This document shows, in pieces, positions 530 through 63,861 of a stretch of 64,000 bases of DNA (position 1 is the first letter of the stretch; every line of letters begins with the position of its first letter). The position numbers were made by a program, and so were the translations under genes. The notes below the pieces were generated by a model that searched no databases, was not told the DNA's origin, and worked only from the letters and a program-made list of their open reading frames with translations. The DNA is from Thermoprotei archaeon (lineage in GTDB: Archaea > Thermoproteota > Thermoprotei > Thermoproteales > B15-G16), in contig QMRC01000001.1 in the NCBI GenBank assembly GCA_003649205.1, forward strand, positions 32,001-96,000, written 5' to 3'.

Positions 530-2473
530 GTGTTAGGGTCACTAAATAGGTTCGTAACTATGACTCTTCGGGGATTTCAAGTGAGTGAGAAATTAATTGA
601 GAAATGGGTAAGTGAGTACCTAGCTGAGAGTGTGTGGGAGGTTAGAGAGAACGCTAACGTGAATAGAAGCTACACAGCACTCATGAGCTACGTAGTTGAG
701 AAAGCAATGAGAGCGCTGATACCGAAGTACTTCCCAGAGAAGGCCGTTAAGCTACACCTAGATGGCTGGATACACATACATAAACTACCCCACAGCCTAT
801 TCATACCGTACTGCGCAGGTTGGTCAACAGAGAGAATACTGAGAATGGGACTCAAAACACCTAGCATAAGCGCTAAACCAGCAAAGCACGCAGATGTGCT
901 CGTTGATCACCTAGTGAACTTCCTCTACTGCATAGCACAAGAGTGGACAGGTGCACAAGCTCTCTCAGCAATAGACCTCTACCTAGCACCATTTGCAGAA
1001 CACGATAGGTTAGACTACAAGAGGGTTAAGCAGTGTGTTCAGAGATTCATCTATGACCTCAACTTCACAGGCAGACTAGGTATGCAGACACCATTCACAA
1101 ACGTCATGCTGACCTGTGGAGCGATTGAGGAATACATGGATCTACCAGCTATTGTCGGTGGTGAAGTAGTTGGTACTCTAGGTGACTATTATCATAGAGT
1201 ACCTGAAGTAGTCAAGGCCTTTTGTGAGGTGTATCTGGAAGGTGATGCAACTGGTAGACCCTTCACATTCCCAATACCGACAGTACCTGTTACACCTGAC
1301 TTCTGGAAGTTCCCTGAGATGGATATGATCTGGTTAGCAACTGCTAGGAGGGGTAGCTTCTACTTCCTAAATGGTTACAGCATTGATGTAGCACAGCTAT
1401 TCTCAATGTGTTGTAGACTGGTCATTAACACAGCTAAGGTGGTTCATAAGAACAGTTACAGAGAGAAGCTAGAGGAGATCGAGGGTGAATTATTCAAAAT
1501 GAAGCACATACCGAGAGGAGTGTGGGCTATCCCCGATGCTACAGGTAGCATCGGTGTTGTGACGATAAACCTAGCTAGGATAGCTATGGAAGCTGTTAAG
1601 AGAGGCGATGAGAAGTATGTCTTCGACATACTACAGGACCTATTCAGGGTGGCTAGGGAGTGCTTGATGACTATGAGGAGGAGGTACGAGAAGAGTCTTG
1701 AGTCAGGCCTCATGCCGATGACTAGGATGTACCTTGGACACTTCATGAATCACTACAATACGATAGGTTTCGTAGCACTACCTGAGTTCAGTAGCATACT
1801 ACTCCAGAGACCTAGGTTGTGGTATATTGAGGACCCACGTGGAGCTAAGGAGGTTTGCAAGCTATATAGATCCGTGCTAGAGTTTGCGAATAAGATTTGT
1901 GAAGAGTTTGAGAGCGAGGACGGTGTTCTGTACAATATAGAGTTAGTACCTGCTGAGTCCGCTGCATATAGATTAGCTAGGTTAGACTACGAGAAGTACC
2001 CAGAGTTCAGAAGCTATATACCTGTTGAAGCACCTTTCGGTAGTGAGGGTGAGAAGGTACCCTTCTACAGTAGCCTCATAACACCGAGTTACAGTACGTG
2101 GGATCTGAGACTACAGCTAGAGGTTGAGTCCGAGATACAGCCACTATTCACTGGTGGCGTAATGAAGCACATATTCCTAGGTACAAAGCTAGAGGTTGAG
2201 CAGGTACGTAGATTTGTTGAGAATATCTGTAAGACAACGAGGATCGTGTACTTTAGCTTGACACCAGTTATGAGTGTGTGTCAGAAGTGTGGTTGGTGGG
2301 ATATTGGTATCTACGCAAGGTGTCCAAGGTGTGGTAATGAGATGATTGACGTGTATAGTAGGATAGTAGGGTATTACAGACCTGTGAAGTTGTGGAACGT
2401 AGGTAGGAAGGCAGAGTTCAAGAGCAGGAGACACCTAAGGGAAGAGGATGTAGAGAAGGTTGTCTTAATGTGA
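530..2473 (+). CDS. nrdD: Anaerobic (class III) ribonucleoside-triphosphate reductase; true start may be GTG 581
   Basis: YCAGWS, QTPFTN, FTFPIPT, SMCCRL finger loop, GSIGVVTIN, PAES, C-terminal CxxC...CxxC zinc site and glycyl-radical motif SRIVGYYRPV. Confidence 0.95.
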   Translation: MLGSLNRFVTMTLRGFQVSEKLIEKWVSEYLAESVWEVRENANVNRSYTALMSYVVEKAMRALIPKYFPEKAVKLHLDGWIHIHKLPHSLFIPYCAGWSTERILRMGLKTPSISAKPAKHADVLVDHLVNFLYCIAQEWTGAQALSAIDLYLAPFAEHDRLDYKRVKQCVQRFIYDLNFTGRLGMQTPFTNVMLTCGAIEEYMDLPAIVGGEVVGTLGDYYHRVPEVVKAFCEVYLEGDATGRPFTFPIPTVPVTPDFWKFPEMDMIWLATARRGSFYFLNGYSIDVAQLFSMCCRLVINTAKVVHKNSYREKLEEIEGELFKMKHIPRGVWAIPDATGSIGVVTINLARIAMEAVKRGDEKYVFDILQDLFRVARECLMTMRRRYEKSLESGLMPMTRMYLGHFMNHYNTIGFVALPEFSSILLQRPRLWYIEDPRGAKEVCKLYRSVLEFANKICEEFESEDGVLYNIELVPAESAAYRLARLDYEKYPEFRSYIPVEAPFGSEGEKVPFYSSLITPSYSTWDLRLQLEVESEIQPLFTGGVMKHIFLGTKLEVEQVRRFVENICKTTRIVYFSLTPVMSVCQKCGWWDIGIYARCPRCGNEMIDVYSRIVGYYRPVKLWNVGRKAEFKSRRHLREEDVEKVVLM

Positions 2474-55787: not shown

Positions 55788-56330
55788 CTACATTAACCTG
55801 CTTTTTACGTCTCTAATTGCTTCCTCTATGGTCTCTGGTATCGGTAGGTTAAGCTCATTCTACAGTTCAATAAGTTGAGTAGGTTTTCTGGGTACTTCCT
55901 TACGCCAATTTTGATTGTGTAGTAGAGCTTGTTGTATGTTTGATCTTTACCCCTACATATTGTGTACCTGATGTTGTACTTTCTAAGTAGCTCGACTATC
56001 TTTTCGGAATCTCGTACCTATCTTCTGGTACTCTCGGTACTTCTAAGAACCCTTTACATCGATAGTTCCTCTTGATCCGTAGTAGTACATTCCTAACATT
56101 CGTTACTCTATGACTCGAGATCAATATCTTTCTCGGTTGTTGTTTCTTACCTGGATTTCTCCTTAACCTTATTGAAAAACTCATTTAACTTCAATCCACA
56201 TACCAGTATCTCCTTCATAATTTGAAGAAACTTCAAGAGCTTCATCAGTAAGTATTCCAGCCTTAACTATTAGCTCCTTAAGATCTTTCCCCTCCTTAAC
56301 CTGAATTATGGTGTTAAAGAGGCTTACACA
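55788..56330 (-). pseudogene. Decayed gene remnant with several frameshifts and stops
   Basis: Protein-like fragments in alternating minus frames (IQVKEGKDLKELIVKAGIL..., KIVELLRKYNIRYTICRGKDQTYNKLYYTIKIG..., ELNLPIPETIEEAIRDVKSRLM*). Boundaries approximate. Confidence 0.45.
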
Positions 56331-56402
56331 CCCTATCTATTCCAGACTCCAGACATGGTTAATGCCTTGATATAGAAGCATAGCCCATATAGTTAGGATT
56401 TA

Positions 56403-56927
56403 GTGAGGTGTAGACCTATAGGGAGAGACAAAAGAGATTCACTAATTGCCACTGATCGTAGTAAGGGTAGGAAGGTCACATTGTATTCTATTGTGGTATC
56501 TTCCATGAGGGCTAGGGATGAGCTGACGAGGTATGTTGATACGTTTAAACATGTAAAGTTCCTTAGTAGACATGAACGAACAACATACTTCCCTAAGACA
56601 CTTAGGATTATCAAGACACTCGTTGATGCAGATATTTTGCTAAGTATTGATGTAACTAACTACCTAGGAGTACTTCTAGATCATCTTGAGAAAATTAGTA
56701 ATAGAGTAAATAGAGTACTTGTCGCTGTTACAGATGACTACCTAGTTAATATCACCAGGAATAAGCTTAGAGAATCAGTAGTTATAGCTGAAGGCTCTCT
56801 AAGAAGGTATAGAGTTACGCTAGAAAACCTTGGATTAAAGTCATCTGTAATGTACGTTCTTCTAGGTATTGCTGATACACTAGCAGCTTACACTAGAATA
56901 CAAGTTGAAGATCAGGGCAGAAAATAG
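56403..56927 (+). CDS. Putative DUF3800-like (RNase H-fold) protein
   Basis: N-terminal strand with IATDRSKG (DESG-like), mid-protein VAVTDD, C-terminal LGIADTLAAY (compare the DUF3800 xxADxxA helix). Read by eye only. Confidence 0.5.
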   Translation: MRCRPIGRDKRDSLIATDRSKGRKVTLYSIVVSSMRARDELTRYVDTFKHVKFLSRHERTTYFPKTLRIIKTLVDADILLSIDVTNYLGVLLDHLEKISNRVNRVLVAVTDDYLVNITRNKLRESVVIAEGSLRRYRVTLENLGLKSSVMYVLLGIADTLAAYTRIQVEDQGRK

Positions 56928-56969
56928 AGAAATAAGATCGAAATTATCACTAAAGTGGAGTTTATGAAA

Positions 56970-57034
56970 GGTAGACAAGCTCCGCCCCAACCTCATCCCC
57001 CGGGAGTATCCCCCGGCGGTCGAGGGCTTCATCC
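56970..57034 (-). ncRNA. Putative GC-rich structured ncRNA convergent with the DUF3800-like gene
   Basis: High-GC island in AT-rich flanks. Complementary segments CCGCC 56982-86/GGCGG 57015-19, CCGGG 57000-04/CCCGG 57012-16 and AAGC 56977-80/GCTT 57026-29. Minus-strand BRE-TATA lies 25 nt upstream. Confidence 0.55.
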
Positions 57035-57058
57035 GGATAAATAATAGTTTCTAGAGAA

Positions 57059-57074
57059 TTTATATAGCTTTTGC
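57059..57074 (-). promoter_or_regulatory. Archaeal BRE plus TATA box
   Basis: Minus strand reads GCAAAAGC-TATATAAA, placing a predicted start near G57034. Confidence 0.55.
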
Positions 57075-57115
57075 AACTAAAGCCAAAACCGTAAGCGAGA
57101 TAGTATTAATAAGAG

Positions 57116-57589
57116 GTGGTATTTCTGAGATTGCCTTTTCCTAAGTCTAAGAGATTCTATGTGTATCTATGGATTGACTTAGTCATTAGCTCACTTCTTC
57201 TTTCGTTCATAATTTTTATAACGTTTCTCGCCGCTCTCTCCCAGCAATGGCTTGTTTTCATTATTTTTCTAGGATTTCTTTTCGCCTATGTTTGGTGTTG
57301 GTACTCTAGAGACCTATTTATCTTGAGGAATTGGCGTAAGTGTAAGGTTGTTGTTACTGAAAGCTATGATCCGCATTATTTCAAAGCCAAGGGATTTGAA
57401 TTAAATATAAGGAAAATACCTTTCTCATGGTCTAAATATTACAAAGTAACTGTAAACAATGTAAGCTTTATAGTTTATCCTACGAGAATAACTGGTAAAA
57501 TAATGGTAATTCCAGTGAACATACATTTAATACCGAAAAACGTTAATGAGGAAGATTTACGTAAAATACTCCAATTAATTCCAGCGTAG
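57116..57589 (+). CDS. Hypothetical membrane protein (2 TM), AT-rich
   Basis: 157-aa ORF with two hydrophobic segments and atypical base composition. Confidence 0.55.
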   Translation: MVFLRLPFPKSKRFYVYLWIDLVISSLLLSFIIFITFLAALSQQWLVFIIFLGFLFAYVWCWYSRDLFILRNWRKCKVVVTESYDPHYFKAKGFELNIRKIPFSWSKYYKVTVNNVSFIVYPTRITGKIMVIPVNIHLIPKNVNEEDLRKILQLIPA

Positions 57590-58106
57590 ACCACACCATG
57601 CAAGTTGTGAATTTACACATTCCTACACTTCTAGGCCTCAGCTTTGGGTTATTGTACATTATTACTGGTGCATTGTTCTTTACTTTTATTCGTAGGATTC
57701 TTTGTAGGATTAGGCTTACATCTCGGATTCATAGTAGGCATAAAGAGCTATGGTAAGATGGCCTTTCTAATAGCTTCAAACCTATTAGTTACATGCTTAG
57801 AGGCACTAGGTTTTAAGTAACTCCTCATTTATCTTAAAAGTAACAGTCCTCATAATATCACAGTATTCAAATGCTGTTGATGAAGAAGATAGTAAAGCTT
57901 GTTGGATACTATTTCACTAAGGTTCAGGTTCGCTCCACGAACCTCTTATCACGGTCATTAAGCGTGTCAAAATACCTTGGGATTCCTTCACACAATCTCC
58001 TTAATCCTCCTAACGGTAACCTAAACTTCGCCCAAGACCAGTTCTCTATTTAGACTAGTACTAGTAGATGTATGTAAAAACTATTTCCAGTTTAGACTGC
58101 GAGTAG

Positions 58107-58427
58107 GTGTCTGGTATAGAAGGAACCCTCCTAGAGAAGTATGGAAACAGATTTGTATGGATTTGTTACTACTCTTCATTCCAAAGCGGTTCTATGCCTT
58201 GTAGACTTAGATTTAATGGTGCTTTACGATTATTGTTTTACCTTCTTGATGTTGGTGAAGCTAGTTTTAGTAGAACTAGGAATGATTCGATGAAGTATGA
58301 GACTGTGGCTAGAGCTGTTGAGATACTTAAGGAGGTTGGTTTTATTGAGGAGAGAGTAGACAATAAACCACCATACCCTAGACTAGTTAAATTAACTGAT
58401 AAGGGTAAAAATGCTAGTGAACTCTAA
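58107..58427 (+). pseudogene. Winged-HTH regulator, possibly truncated
   Basis: YETVARAVEILKEVGFIEE...PRLVKLTDKG wHTH motif, with the ORF ending just after the wing. Confidence 0.5.
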
Positions 58428-59020
58428 CAGCTTCGCTCATAAATCCTCTGGATTTTCTCCCCAATTAATCAGTAGTTCCTTATCCAGCACCATTCCATAT
58501 AGTTCTCTTAGCTTCTCAATTACCTTTCCTCCATCCCTTATCTTTTCCTTGTACTACTCTTGCTTCTCAAGAGCTAGTAGTAATGCATTTTCAACACCAC
58601 AAGCATACATACCATTACCCATGGTCCCTTAGCATTCAAGAGGACGCCCCATTGTAATGCGAGGTTTTAGAGTACTCTCAGGTGATGTTATTAATTTATG
58701 ACTAGGCGGGTAAAACCTTTAAAACTAGACGAGGAAACATATCAGACCTAGGCTTATGGTATAGTAGTAAGGCTAAGCTTTACTTTAGGAAAGGGGAAGA
58801 GCTATTTCAGCAATATAGGTTTCCATAAGCATTCAGTTATTTCAGGAAAGTATAGCGTTTACCTCAAAATTATCTGTGAATTCTTTAAAATTATCATTAA
58901 AATTATCATTACTAAAAATTACCATAAAGAACATTATGTCAGTGAGCATCTAGAGAAAATAGCCAAAGATATAGACTCCCTTAAGAAAGAGCTTTCACGA
59001 TTAGCCCTAGCATCTAGTCG

Positions 59021-59752
59021 ATGGGTGAGAATGCGACAAAAGACCAGAGGAATTATACGACATGGAAATCAGCGTCCAACGTACTAAACATGTTCAGAAA
59101 CTTCTCAACACTCTTTCTTCCCTTTGGTGCTTCAAGATCTAGATTAAATACTCGGAGAGAATCAAATAAGCAAGCGCAACCAGAAGGCTTGAAAGATCCT
59201 CAGTATAGTAGAGGAGATGGCATAGTTAGTCGAGCAAAATTTGATTACGTAGATCTCTTAATACTAAAGGAGCTAGAGAAAGAAGCACCAAGAGCACCAG
59301 AGGAGCTATCACGAACATTGAATATATGTTCAAAATCGATAAAAAGACATTTCAATAAGCACATCCTCAGGAGAGGTCTCATTGAAGCTCTTCGCATAAG
59401 ATGCTTCTGGTGGAAACCGGAAGAGGCATTATGGTACTCGATGTCGATTACATTTAGCTCAGAAAGTTTCGTTAAATCATTTATAAATACACTATATGGA
59501 TCACCAATAGTTCAATAATTTCTGCTAACAACAAAAGCACGACACATCCTAGTATCAATAGTGCTACCACGAAGCGAAGTAGTAGGTTTATTAAACTTCG
59601 TAAAAAGATTGAAGCATCACAACATTATCACAAAGCTTGAAATGTACCAGTTAGTACTGGATAGCTTCAAGAACTTTACAATACCTTATGAATGCTATGC
59701 AGAAGAGCCAGCTTCTGGAAGTTACCTGTGTCCAGTATTTAGAGTTTTTTAA
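59021..59752 (+). pseudogene. Lrp/AsnC-like HTH regulator interrupted by an in-frame TAA (59516-59518)
   Basis: FDYVDLLILKELE...EELSRTL...SIKRHF.KHI HTH. ORF 59561-59752 continues in the same frame and ends ...FTIPYE. Confidence 0.6.
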
Positions 59753-59830
59753 CTTTACTGCCATGGCAGCCAAGATACATGATAGGTATGCATACCTACT
59801 CTGGCTTAGATCGTGAATACGGTGCTGAGA

Positions 59831-59944
59831 ATGAGGCCAAAAGATATGAGAAGTAGGGTGCTAGTACTCGAAAGGGCTAAGAGCACAATGCTAACAGAGC
59901 CTAACTTCTTCTGTGGGAGCTTCATATCACCTGTACGTACATAG
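59831..59944 (+). CDS. Putative RiPP precursor peptide, 37 aa: MRPKDMRSRVLVLERAKSTMLTEPNFFCGSFISPVRT
   Basis: Manually translated. GGTG RBS at 59821-59824, and the stop codon lies 10 nt before the radical SAM ATG. Below the ORF-track length cutoff. Confidence 0.65.
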   Translation: MRPKDMRSRVLVLERAKSTMLTEPNFFCGSFISPVRT

Positions 59945-59954
59945 AGGGATCACC

Positions 59955-61292
59955 ATGTTCAAACTCTCGAAATTCACTTTATTTTTCCCATATAATGAAA
60001 ACTACGTACTACTTTACAACACCTTGACGAAAGCAATAGCACTAGTCACAAAAGATCTAGCCTATGCACTACGCTCTGGTAATTTTAATGAACTCAGCAA
60101 GGATGAACTCAATGAGCTGTTAAGTAATGGCTTTTTAGTAGAAAAAGATATTGACGAAACAAAACTGCTGATATACCACAGCTATAGATCAATCTTCAAC
60201 TACTCATACCTAAACTTGGTACTTCACATCACATCAGCATGTAATATGAGCTGTATATACTGTTATGAAGGGCCTAAACGAGGACTACATATGGATGAGA
60301 AGGTATGTCAAAATGTAGTGAAGTTCGTTAAGAGGATTGTAGAATGTAGAGGATCAAGGAACGTTGTCACATTACTTCACGGTGGAGAACCTCTCCTGAA
60401 TTATAGGATCCTACTAACGTACTGTCGAGAAATCTATAAGCTCGCTGATGAATATAGGTTGAAAGTAGAGAATATATTGATAACTAATGGTACATTGTTG
60501 ACAAAAGATAAAATTGATACTATATCATGCCTTGTGAACGAAGTACAGGTAACGCTTGATGGTCCTAGAGATATACACGACTTCCGACGACCTTTCATTG
60601 ATGGTAAGGGGACGTTTGATGTAATACTGAGAAATGTGCTTGAGATTGTTGACAGAGTGCAGACCCTAAGTATCAGAATAAATGTTGATAAGCAGAATGT
60701 TATGTACATCACTAAGCTGCTTGACTTACTCAGGGACTATGGTCTTAATAGGAGAAATGTCCTTATAGGTTTTGGTCGAGTATTTGTACCAAGGGTCAGT
60801 AATGGTAGGTACAATCCTGACTGGATTTTCAGTTACAGAGAATTCGTAGATGTCCTCATTGGTCTTCAGAAAGAGGCATTGAGAAGGGGGTTCAAGATAG
60901 TTAGGAAGATAGAGTTAAGGCCTTGCCCTGCATTGCACGATAATAGCTTCGCAGTAGATGAGAGGGGTAAAATATACAAATGTCCTGTATTTGTATGGGA
61001 TGAGAGATTCGCTATTGGAAACATAGATGATCTTGAGATTGCTCTCTTCAGAAATTCATTCGCTAATTACTTGGACTTCATACTAGAGGTTCCTTGGCAG
61101 AAACATTTGGGATGTCCATACTTGCCAATGTGTTACGCTGGCTGCACATACGAGTCTATAGTGCTTAAGGGTAAGATCAATGAGGTATGCTGTCCAAGGG
61201 ATTACTTTGAAAAGTTAGGTGAATTACTTAGGCTCTACGTGGAGTCAAGATATGGAGATGTTCTTGAGAGGTTTAGTAGATGCAGGTGCTGA
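59955..61292 (+). CDS. Radical SAM/SPASM-domain peptide maturase with N-terminal RRE-like region
   Basis: CNMSCIYC, GGEPLL, TNGTLL, QVTLDG..HD..R, SPASM CPA...G.IYKC...HxxCPYLPMCYAGC...CC. N-terminus LYNTLT...L..NGFLV is wHTH-like. Start reassigned to ATG 59955. Confidence 0.85.
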   Translation: MFKLSKFTLFFPYNENYVLLYNTLTKAIALVTKDLAYALRSGNFNELSKDELNELLSNGFLVEKDIDETKLLIYHSYRSIFNYSYLNLVLHITSACNMSCIYCYEGPKRGLHMDEKVCQNVVKFVKRIVECRGSRNVVTLLHGGEPLLNYRILLTYCREIYKLADEYRLKVENILITNGTLLTKDKIDTISCLVNEVQVTLDGPRDIHDFRRPFIDGKGTFDVILRNVLEIVDRVQTLSIRINVDKQNVMYITKLLDLLRDYGLNRRNVLIGFGRVFVPRVSNGRYNPDWIFSYREFVDVLIGLQKEALRRGFKIVRKIELRPCPALHDNSFAVDERGKIYKCPVFVWDERFAIGNIDDLEIALFRNSFANYLDFILEVPWQKHLGCPYLPMCYAGCTYESIVLKGKINEVCCPRDYFEKLGELLRLYVESRYGDVLERFSRCRC

Positions 61293-62203
61293 TAACACGT
61301 GAATTAACTAAGGTCTATAGTGGCTATGTTGTAGCGAATGACAATATCAACATTACGGTCAATAGAGGTGAGGTAGTTGGTATACTTGGTCCTAATGGTG
61401 CTGGTAAGACAACTTTCGTTCGACAGGTCATAGGTGTGCTTAAGCCAACACGTGGATACATTGAGCTACTTGGTCACAAGGTACCTGATGAGATTCACAG
61501 GGTTAAGCACTTCATTGGGTATATGCCTCAGTACCCAGCTTACTACCATGGAGTAACTGTATACCAGCTAGTGTACTACATCGCTAGACTATACGGTATG
61601 TCTAGACGAGAGGCAAAGAGTAGGACTTCTGAAATTCTCAAGGAGATGAACCTCCTAGACTACGCTAACTACTATCACAATAACCTCTCAGTTGGTCTAG
61701 CTAGAGTAACTTACTTTTGCTCAGCTATAGTTCACGATCCAGAGTTCCTAGTACTAGATGAACCAACTAGTATGTTGGATCCATCTATGAGACGTAGAGT
61801 GATATCGAAGATTAAGGAGATGAAGAGACAGGGTAAGACCGTACTTCTGACGACAAATATCATTAGGGATGTTGAGGAGCTATGTGATAGGGTTTACTTC
61901 CTACTAAATGGTAGAGTATTGCTTGAGGGTAGTCCTAGTGAGATTGTATCTCGTATTCTCGGTACAATTAAGGTTCATGTCAAGGTTCGTGAGAAAATTC
62001 CGCTAGAAGAGATGATTAGAGAAAGGTATGGAGATTGCATCGAATCTATTGAGTACTTAGAGGACAATGAGATTGTGCTGAGTGTAAGGAATCTAGTTAG
62101 GGCTTTGGATTTTGTTAAGGAGATAGCGAAGGTAGCAAACATAACCTATATCTCAATCTCAACTCCATCACTTGAGGAGGTGTACCTGAAGATATATGGT
62201 TGA
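61280..62203 (+). CDS. ABC-2 type exporter ATP-binding protein
   Basis: GPNGAGKTT, GYMPQ, LDEPT..LDP. Overlaps the end of the radical SAM gene. Confidence 0.9.
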   Translation: MQVLITRELTKVYSGYVVANDNINITVNRGEVVGILGPNGAGKTTFVRQVIGVLKPTRGYIELLGHKVPDEIHRVKHFIGYMPQYPAYYHGVTVYQLVYYIARLYGMSRREAKSRTSEILKEMNLLDYANYYHNNLSVGLARVTYFCSAIVHDPEFLVLDEPTSMLDPSMRRRVISKIKEMKRQGKTVLLTTNIIRDVEELCDRVYFLLNGRVLLEGSPSEIVSRILGTIKVHVKVREKIPLEEMIRERYGDCIESIEYLEDNEIVLSVRNLVRALDFVKEIAKVANITYISISTPSLEEVYLKIYG

Positions 62204-62945
62204 GGTGGTGAAGGGTATGGTCATGAAGTACCTACGGTCATTAGTAGCTCTATCCACGATGCATCTTAGAGTACTCCTATACTTCTGGCCATATTACCTA
62301 ATGTCCTCACTCCTTACACCACTACTCGTAGTACTCATGCTCTACTACGTACTTGGGTACACAGCAAATGTACTCTACCTGATATGCGCTATGTTCACAC
62401 TATCTTCACTGGGCACATTCACAATGATTTCACAGGACATAAGTAGTCTGAAGCAAACACAGGTGTATGAGTTCTACGCATCATTACCCATATCTCCACT
62501 AGACTACGTGCTATCAAAGCTAATAGCTAATTTAGTCATGTACATACCATCCATAGCTGTATTACTGCTAACTGGATACTTGCTGACAGGTACTCTACCA
62601 AACATACCACTATTCGCTATAGCTGTAGTCATTTCCTACACAGCATTTATATGGTTAGGTATGATCGTAGGACTATACTCACGAAATCCAGTACAGGCTA
62701 ACGTCATATCAATGATTGTGTACCTAGTACTTCTCTTTGGATCACCAATGTATGGACCTATATCCAACACCAACTTAGTGCTTAGAACTGCAGCTCTAGT
62801 ATTACCGACAACGCATATAGCTAAGGTATTCCGCTCCTCATACTGCATTGAAAGCGTGAGCCCTGATACAATCACTTACCTAGCTATATGGTACATAGTG
62901 AACACTGTGATCATATCTAGAAGGTTAAGGTGGACATTAGAGTAA
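62196..62945 (+). CDS. ABC-2 type exporter permease
   Basis: About six TM segments, E.Y.SLPIS..Y..SK, LP.T motif. Overlaps the ATPase stop. Confidence 0.85.
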   Translation: MVEVVKGMVMKYLRSLVALSTMHLRVLLYFWPYYLMSSLLTPLLVVLMLYYVLGYTANVLYLICAMFTLSSLGTFTMISQDISSLKQTQVYEFYASLPISPLDYVLSKLIANLVMYIPSIAVLLLTGYLLTGTLPNIPLFAIAVVISYTAFIWLGMIVGLYSRNPVQANVISMIVYLVLLFGSPMYGPISNTNLVLRTAALVLPTTHIAKVFRSSYCIESVSPDTITYLAIWYIVNTVIISRRLRWTLE

Positions 62946-63149
62946 TGAAGTTTAAAGATCTGCGGAAATAGGTTCGACTTAACAGCAATATTGAGTGATG
63001 GTAGTAGTAATGTACCTGGGGCAAGTATATGAAGTTCAAGGTCTCTAGTTCTTGTGCAGGGAATGCATCCATCATCAGGAGATTGTGTGACTGCTGAAGT
63101 ATGTAGTTGTGTCTGTGGATTGCTCTATCGCTTGTACTTATTATCCGCT

Positions 63150-63861
63150 ATAAGCAGAAACAGGAGTTGCATATACAAACCTCGCATCAGCATCATCAAG
63201 TCCTAGCTCGCAAAGCTTAGAGTAAAGTTCGCGAAATGCTGTAGGAGGTTCATCATCAGTCAAGTACCGTATCATTACTTCCAAATCACTCTCTACCTCC
63301 TGTAACCTATTCCTTAGCAAAACAACATGCAATAATTGAGGGATAGCCATAGCTACTACAGTGCTTGCAGATAATGGTCGTGATGAAATTTCAACTCTAC
63401 TACCAATACCAGGAGTGAATTGATGCGATGGAGATACAGAGCACAGCCTCTCCATACTACTCCGCTACTCACCTACAACATCAAGGTACTTAGCTATTTC
63501 CTCACGATTTCAGATAAAGCGACATTCGAGAGAAGTAGTACTCAAGTCAATAATTGACCTATTGAATCGATTGATAGTGACGAGACATAGCAGGAGGAGA
63601 CTTGTTCAGGTGTACTACGAAACACGGGTTAGGGAGAACATTGAGAAAGCTACTGAGTAGCTTAGGGATATAGGTATGACCAATGTTAGGGTGTATGAGG
63701 ATAAGGCGAAGAATGGTGTAGTGTATAGACTTTATTTTGGTGTTAGCAAGTCAACTGTAGGCATTCTATACAGGTTACTTGAAGAGATGAGGAAGATGAG
63801 TGTTGACCAAGATAAGGTAGTGAAGTTGGAGGAGGCAATAAAGTTCTTGACTCAGGAGTAA
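63150..63861 (+). pseudogene. Decayed gene remnant, including track ORF 63676-63861
   Basis: The frame of ORF 63676 extends upstream through in-frame stops at 63658 and 63421. Boundaries approximate. Confidence 0.35.

Follow-up and report, generated by a model that had tools for sequence, protein, structure and literature searches.

A small open reading frame lies in the analysed window, the whole 64,000-nucleotide stretch of DNA to which all coordinates refer, directly ahead of genes for a radical SAM/SPASM peptide maturase and for the two parts of an ABC transporter (Table 1). It closes with a TAG at 59942–59944, and its translation, read directly from the sequence, is MRPKDMRSRVLVLERAKSTMLTEPNFFCGSFISPVRT. 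The only Cys of the peptide is residue 28, and Phe is found at residues 26, 27 and 31. A first-pass annotation had proposed a peptide of this length with this Cys and Phe content, and the sequence and the ORF list both confirm it.

Table 1. Positions of the features discussed in the text.
Feature	Position	Strand	Remarks	Basis
Candidate precursor peptide gene	59831..59944, stop included	+	37 aa	sequence and ORF list
Putative Shine-Dalgarno-like GGTG	59821..59824	+	6 nt 5' of ATG 59831	
Predicted leader recognition strand VLVLE, residues 10-14	59858..59872	+		conservation and complex model
EPNF motif, residues 23-26	59897..59908	+	Asn25 = 59903-59905	conservation
Cys28 codon	59912..59914	+	proposed modification site; chemistry putative	aligned with first family Cys
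Shine-Dalgarno-like GAGGGATC	59944..59951	+	between peptide stop and enzyme start	
Radical SAM/SPASM peptide maturase with N-terminal RRE-like domain	59955..61292	+	445 aa	NCBIfam, Pfam, AF2
ABC transporter ATPase, DrrA-like	61280..62203	+	start overlaps enzyme end by 13 nt	
ABC-2 type permease	62196..62945	+	start overlaps ATPase end by 8 nt	

Two alternative starts are available in the same frame, a GTG at 59813, which would give 43 residues, and an ATG at 59846, which would give 32. The ATG at 59831 is favoured as the start of the peptide because the spacing of its GGTG matches that of the members of the precursor family described below, where GGTG or GGAGG is found 3–11 nt ahead of the peptide starts. 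These signals also favour a single transcript for the operon. In the peptide–enzyme spacers of the relatives, GGTGA or GGAGG takes the place of GAGGGATC. A TTTTTTAA run at 59745–59752 may be a TATA box, but it is located farther upstream than in the relatives.

The ORF list extends the enzyme frame to a GTG at 59913, and in this form it runs over the final 32 nt of the small ORF, in a different frame. The homologous enzymes begin with MKLSKYN.., MKPSKFN.. or MKISKYN.., and the public protein P0001 is the 445-residue form; the start of the enzyme is therefore assigned to the ATG at 59955, with the peptide stop at 59944 sitting 10 nt ahead of it. This means that the overlap with the small ORF is an artefact of listing the longest frames, and the earlier suggestion that the upstream extension had hidden the peptide was right. 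The peptide had also been called unannotated, and indeed its 37-, 43- and 32-residue forms are all absent from ca 15 billion public protein calls. No NCBIfam model gave a family match to the precursor peptides, and the match of one family member to FliZ (0.0012, NCBIfam) was taken as spurious. No publication on this precursor family was found in the literature on radical SAM precursor peptides of Thermoproteota/Sulfolobus and on ranthipeptides of Crenarchaeota, nor did we find RNA sequencing runs that carry the locus.

A length of 37 codons carries no significance by itself, and it is the homology that exceeds chance. A first profile was built from five peptides located upstream of homologous enzymes, chosen by eye and with the present ORF left out, and was searched against the 51,033 stop-to-stop ORFs of at least 20 residues in the whole source genome. 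ORF 59831–59944 ranks first, with an E value of 3.4e-4 and 21.9 bits, and the next match has an E value of 0.12. With a profile of 24 sequences, again without the ORF itself and on the same set, the corresponding E values are 2.7e-5 and 0.36. The five-peptide profile is the cleaner test of the two, since most members of the larger one had been recruited by profiles that included the ORF. The weaker genome-wide matches (C2:240477–240560, C6:40098–40217 and C16:35611–35718, with E values of 0.12–0.36) were treated as chance, because their contigs are all without a radical SAM match. Each of the five training peptides has a hydrophobic run that ends in LE[KR] (LH in L019) and a tail that contains Cys, and EPNF or ESNF is found in three of them.

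The association of peptide and enzyme holds in both directions. At the closest enzyme loci, a small ORF is located on the same strand directly 5' of the enzyme gene, and in 10 of the 11 it is positive with the HMM. Five of these are the training set, while the five new ones (L100–L104) have profile E values of 3.8e-10 to 2.5e-17; the eleventh locus (L009) carries a divergent, Cys-rich small ORF in place of the family peptide. When metagenome contigs were scanned with nothing but the peptide motif, 16 loci were obtained, which are not all independent since some repeat genomes already seen (identical peptides), and an enzyme homologue starts within ca 45 nt of the peptide stop in all 14 that could be assessed, the contig ending too early downstream in the other two.

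The family consensus comprises a short hydrophobic strand with LE[KR] at its end, 6–7 spacer residues, EPNF, and then a Cys. In an alignment of 11 sequences, L13 is invariant, and E14 and N25 are each at least 90% conserved. Almost every member has a Cys immediately following EPNF. The total of Cys residues, from one to six per peptide, differs between members, and so does the tail. Searching 5.8 billion proteins with a profile returned 14 small proteins of 32–55 residues, of which the named ones all bear the label "hypothetical protein" and one comes from a Desulfurococcaceae MAG. When 1.84 billion representatives were searched without a word index, 17 matches at E ≤ 0.001 were obtained, one of which, a protein of 2044 residues, was taken as spurious. 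Most of the family's small proteins in the public data contain EPNF. Crude codon counts on the family ORFs gave a median pN/pS of 0.29 (pS 0.68, 89 pairs, 14 ORFs), a value that is biased because the segments were picked by a motif regex. Among the distant loci of a broader scan (see below), only L039, L030, L026 and L057 have loosely similar small peptides, with E values above 0.05.

By its profile match, its EPNF followed by Cys and its position before a maturase, the ORF thus belongs to the archaeal LE[KR]...EPNF-Cys family defined here. It also has the generic RiPP layout, namely a short same-strand ORF adjoining a maturase, with conserved motifs that are separate from a variable core. The matches support the view that the family is rare and comes from heat-loving archaea of the Thermoproteota, and no prior description of it was found. 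The expectation that the ORF and its Cys and Phe positions are conserved beside homologous enzymes is borne out at the level of the family for the ORF, for Cys28, which aligns with the first Cys of the family, and for F26, but not for F27 and F31.

We now turn to the leader. The hhhLE[KR] strand, which here reads VLVLER, is the best-conserved leader feature of the family. A model of the peptide–enzyme complex has an ipSAE of 0.75 (0.76, 0.75 and 0.74 in the individual runs), as compared to 0.02 for the best of three controls. The pLDDT of the partner is ca 52, and the runs agree in at least 60% of the contacts. That mark is attained by 58 of the 80 solved complexes used for comparison and by 2 of the 110 mismatched pairs. 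Residues 7–17 of the peptide are placed against strand 25–32 and helix 48–59 of the enzyme, the lowest-error contacts being those between peptide residues 10–15 and enzyme residues 26–32. Peptide residues 19–25 and 28 touch enzyme residues 323–325 and 429–440, and residue 28 is within the confident set of contacts. Leader–RRE complexes have been solved for related enzymes, for example CteB, SuiB and ChlB, and the score may for this reason reflect likeness to them rather than binding by this particular copy. The leader strand is thus predicted to add to the β-sheet of the N-terminal RRE-like domain of the enzyme. The proposal that VLVLE is the RRE-binding leader motif gains support from the conservation of L13 and E14 and from the predicted pairing.

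The enzyme itself matches Pfam Radical_SAM with an E value of 2.3e-13, and Pfam detected no PqqD/RRE domain in it. The AF2 model has a mean pLDDT of 88.2 and a pTM of 0.87, and its N-terminus consists of strands 2–4, 8–12, 17–22 and 27–32 followed by helices 33–41, 49–57 and 68–80, a pattern that we read as a RiPP recognition element. The radical SAM CX3CX2C motif is formed by C96, C100 and C103. The SPASM cysteines are C324, C343, C387, C393, C397 and C413, with C412 as an extra one, and the first Cys that most relatives have in the SPASM CX2-3C motif is replaced by K383/H384. The best fold matches of the model are CteB (5why/5wgg, E values of 8e-22 to 3.5e-20, TM 0.66–0.70) and TigE, followed by anSME, ChlB and SuiB, and CteB is also the best PDB match by sequence (1.8e-15). 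Among the NCBIfam models, those of CefB (3.1e-73), the geopeptide maturase (1.3e-68), Clo7bot (1.9e-58) and TIGR04463 (3e-52) match over nearly the full length, including the RRE region.

These matches are, however, all well below the family cut-offs. The enzyme scores 247 bits against a cut-off of 600 for CefB (NF038107), and the single Cys of the peptide differs from the Cys at every fifth position in the CefB/CefA system. The scores are 231.9 against 400 bits for the geopeptide maturase (TIGR04280), 198 against 600 for Clo7bot (TIGR04334), and 178 against 525 for TIGR04463. To our knowledge, these four families are chemically uncharacterised, and a literature search on geopeptide found no papers. 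The Geobacter-type loci L030 and L026 likewise carry small peptides, in which a KLVVLEN-like strand is combined with a tail rich in Cys.

The closest characterised comparison is CteB with its SCIFF substrate (thermocellin; 5WGG/5WHY). Like the present enzyme, CteB has N-terminal RRE-like, radical SAM and SPASM domains, a short Cys-containing peptide is encoded beside it, and the leader strand is located on the RRE sheet, which in our case is a prediction. The identity over the fold alignment is ca 20%, and the SCIFF maturase model TIGR03974 gives 87.7 bits against a cut-off of 425. The SCIFF precursor has six Cys, whereas the present peptide has one and a much shorter leader; the present system is in addition archaeal, and its operon includes an ABC-2 exporter pair.

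The systems PapB/freyrasin and NxxcB/NxxcA produce ranthipeptides, in which a radical SAM/SPASM enzyme forms a thioether between a Cys and a nearby side-chain carbon. The N25-F-F-C28 segment has the N-x-x-C spacing of the NxxcB/NxxcA-type systems, but this rule is not conserved in the family, since the Asn–Cys spacing varies and is mostly N-F-C. The PapB model matches the enzyme with 4.3e-36 and 124.8 bits, against a cut-off of 340, and the peptide has no CX3D/E repeat. An archaeal case is found in Methanococcus voltae, where, according to PMC13692751, the SPASM radical SAM enzyme CrpC, which has an RRE, installs thioether (ranthionine) links on CrpA, the product of the neighbouring gene; as described there, CrpA is a large Cys-rich protein of a methanogen, which sets it apart from a 37-residue peptide of the Thermoproteota. 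In kind, the present system is a familiar one: a Cys peptide modified by a radical SAM/SPASM enzyme. The archaeal family to which it belongs is uncurated, and the system does not overturn RiPP logic.

That the ORF encodes a precursor with leader and core for the radical SAM enzyme next to it, as had been proposed, is supported by the profile ranking, by the adjacency found in both directions and by the model of the complex. We put the probability that it is the precursor (RiPP "A" gene) of a precursor–maturase–ATPase–permease operon at roughly 0.8, and we rate at least as highly that it is a genuine member of the family and a substrate of the enzyme.

Concerning the chemistry, both a Cys thioether crosslink and a Phe-based cyclophane had been suggested for the core. 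The Cys route is favoured because the Cys after EPNF is near-universal, the best-matching families are maturases of Cys-rich peptides, and the best fold match is CteB. A cross-link made at Cys28 by the neighbouring iron-sulfur enzyme is the most likely outcome, and the chances that the product carries a thioether at this position are about even. In such a reaction, the enzyme would abstract a hydrogen atom from a residue of the core and join the sulfur of Cys28 to the carbon so activated, to yield a product with a single thioether ring, either a sactionine or a ranthionine. Candidate acceptors are the conserved Asn25 and a residue in the GSFISP tail. The short leader might then remain attached, or a host protease might trim it, as the operon is without a protease of its own, and the ABC-2 pair would export the product or protect the producer.

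A genuine precursor could also undergo another chemistry, such as a C–C or C–O link (for example a Phe cyclophane), epimerisation or some other change, with Cys28 instead docking an auxiliary cluster. SPASM maturases perform C–C, C–O and C–S linking, methylation and epimerisation, as stated in PMC13692751, F26 within EPNF is conserved, and the folds of TigE, SuiB and epimerases match the enzyme model too. However, it is Cys that recurs as a core residue. The Phe cyclophane in particular is disfavoured, since F27 and F31 are not conserved and the cyclophane maturase models score far lower than the Cys-rich-peptide ones: YhhB matches with 4.3e-20 and 71.9 bits (cut-off 445, NF041707) and GrrM/OscB with 3.2e-15 and 56 bits (cut-off 310, TIGR04261), as compared to 247 bits for CefB and 232 for the geopeptide maturase. 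We regard another chemistry as improbable, and of the two earlier suggestions the thioether is the one that is favoured.

It should be noted that this copy of the peptide is an unusual one-Cys form. Relative to the consensus, it has the leader MRSRVLVLER, a spacer that is one residue longer, EPNF, an extra Phe, and then CGSFISPV, with two one-residue insertions in total and Ile32 at the position of the second consensus Cys. The nearest look-alikes end like ...EPNFCGVFCNPIRVIT (P0137), and the tail of the L011 peptide is CGSFISPY. All 22 aligned public members have at least two Cys, and the profile score of the present ORF is 22–25 bits, as compared to 40–68 bits for the other members.

With a single Cys where the members have at least two, and with the insertions, the ORF could be a decaying copy, that is, the descendant of a two-Cys precursor that has lost the second Cys and is no longer productive, in an operon that is decaying or has been repurposed. 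That no other EPNF-family sequence seen has just one Cys points in this direction, as do the low profile score of the ORF, the enzyme's missing SPASM Cys, a premature stop in the upstream gene that is absent from a relative, and the location of the locus inside a low-GC island. On the other hand, the leader motif, EPNF and the first Cys are all kept, and the frames of the enzyme, the ATPase and the permease are intact and translationally coupled. One-Cys cores are, moreover, the norm in a sister clade from another family of the phylum (seven loci, L012–L018), where peptides of 23–25 residues with the pattern ..KVVKIERK.GRCGYSPSWGE, ending in GRCGYSPSWGE or GRCNYSPSWGQ, directly precede the maturase. 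A further argument comes from a variant with ca 95% DNA identity, found in two hydrothermal-vent metagenome runs and spanning 59306–62096 with 142 differences and 4 gaps. The enzyme that it encodes (P0135) is intact at 445 residues, 424 of which are identical and 439 similar, so that the changes are mainly conservative, and it has the same SPASM pattern; the fact that so diverged a variant keeps the enzyme intact argues for selection on it. A short contig (X3 record 18) has 12 differences over 59789–59942. We thus consider a relic slightly less probable still than another chemistry, and the working precursor remains the preferred reading.

That the frame is a chance ORF in the 5' leader of the enzyme mRNA, with the true substrate elsewhere, is very improbable: short ORFs are common, with many listed in the stretch, and ORF 59561–59752 (63 residues) has two Cys close to its end, but ORF 59831–59944 tops the genome-wide ranking with no other ORF below E 0.1, ORF 59561–59752 was rejected as being the tail of a longer gene, in frame with ORF 59021–59518, and the antisense ORF 59806–59925 was rejected as having no relatives in the profile searches.

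The two upstream frames, 59021–59518 and 59561–59752, both on the forward strand, are separated by a single TAA at 59516–59518. Position 59517 is C in the metagenome runs X2 and X3, which turns this codon into TCA (Ser), and ORF 59561–59752 is for this reason taken as the tail of a longer gene. The same X2 and X3 contigs have paired one-base indels at 59611/59614 and 59699/59746. In a Pfam search, the read-through product gave only a sub-threshold hint of a wHTH (HTH_24, E 0.082).

Downstream of the enzyme, the permease matches Pfam ABC2_membrane with 1e-14 and has a weak match to the SagH permease (3.9e-4). A homologue of the ATPase follows the enzyme in L008, L009, L010 and L019 and in nine metagenome loci, while in L112 and L113 more than 1 kb downstream of the enzyme is without an ABC match. 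The contig depth rises ca 15-fold at 61278–61411 in all three runs, with many short contigs ending at 61367–61414, the Walker-A region of the ABC ATPase; this was not counted as a feature of the locus but ascribed to cross-mapping of the conserved motif from other organisms.

The window is archaeal in content. The G+C content is 0.36–0.42 across 56000–63000, as compared to 0.43–0.48 before it, and the drop comes directly after an S6e-like ORF, which together with an IF2/IF5B-like ORF was recognised by eye just upstream of the island. ORFs 56403–56927, 57116–57589, 58107–58427, 63141–63455 and 63676–63861 have no Pfam match, and 57116–57589 and 58107–58427 no NCBIfam match either. A search for an integration site found no tRNA gene nearby, and no integrase was seen. 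The island may be acquired DNA.

The enzyme is sparsely distributed. The best non-self relative among 5.8 billion proteins is 35% identical, and single-protein scans of genome contigs and of metagenome contigs gave no close relatives. Within the same order, enzyme matches are found in 2 of 41 genomes including the source, the other (G001) being an orthologue of the second maturase described below, and the genus's only other genome (71% complete) has no orthologue of the enzyme. In a sample of the phylum, 14 of 401 genomes have homologues at E ≤ 1e-35. Two families were sampled further, with homologues in 8 of 61 genomes, all from one genus (8 of the 15 sampled from it), and in 2 of 17. A broad alignment scan of genome contigs gave 80 distant loci, mainly bacterial.

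For one family of the Thermoproteota, these results link the maturase to its probable substrate gene and supply the recognition motif. According to a 2025 survey (PMC12144867), archaeal radical SAM RiPP clusters are widely predicted, and their products are essentially unknown outside the haloarchaeal lanthipeptides. The substrate genes, of 23–43 codons, are mostly missing from public gene calls, so that cluster miners working from called genes will describe the maturases as "orphan" ones. With its short leader and single Cys, the peptide offers a simple system for studying how the acceptor carbon is chosen; should the host be a thermophile, as its relatives suggest, the system would also be thermostable. 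A more ambitious reading, which we offer tentatively and consider less probable than its opposite, is that the locus encodes a working minimal RiPP of a hydrothermal archaeon, in which a peptide of 37 residues with a leader of ca 22 would receive a small one-Cys thioether ring from the SPASM enzyme and be exported, and which would, together with the L012–L018 and L002 peptides, belong to an unrecognised set of very small radical SAM peptides across the Thermoproteota. If true, they would constitute the phylum's first defined products of this sort. Gene callers overlook these peptides altogether.

Several other small peptides were encountered beside maturases. In the sister clade, the peptides at L013 2710–2781 (−) and L016 1408–1482 (+) end a few bases before GGTGA or GGAGG and the start of the enzyme, and the stops flagged inside the enzyme matches of L012–L018 are probably the stop codon of the small peptide. 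The second maturase of the source genome (L002, on contig C4; 33% identical) is preceded by an uncalled two-Cys ORF of 24 residues, MKVRVRKVKKYRSCANIFCTIVWV, at 1376–1450 (+), with a divergent ArsR-type regulator upstream of the peptide. The same peptide–maturase pair, with one residue different in the peptide, is found at L006 2447–2521 (−) in the genus's other genome. None of the L013, L016 and L002 peptides is in the public protein collection.

In L008, L100–L104, L010 and L007, a conserved ..GGAAA...CGAAA.. stretch followed by a TTTAAATA-like box lies ca 40–70 nt upstream of the peptide starts, and these two elements are possibly an operator and a TATA box. The stretch occurs in the genus with the divergent ArsR-type regulator and is absent at the present locus.

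Small peptides at distant bacterial loci hint at a wider leader type, which these loci and "geopeptide"-like systems may have in common. L039 2475–2895 (+), from a Zixibacteria MAG, has two copies of ..IFLIEPNSVKPPIC..C..FCG.., L057 4387–4710 (+), from a Myxococcota MAG, has three copies of MKIEKGQKVTNPNPVRCPGTLF, and L030 2808–2918 (+), from a Geobacteraceae MAG, reads ..KLVVLENGNENVEKAPLGACCFAAF...
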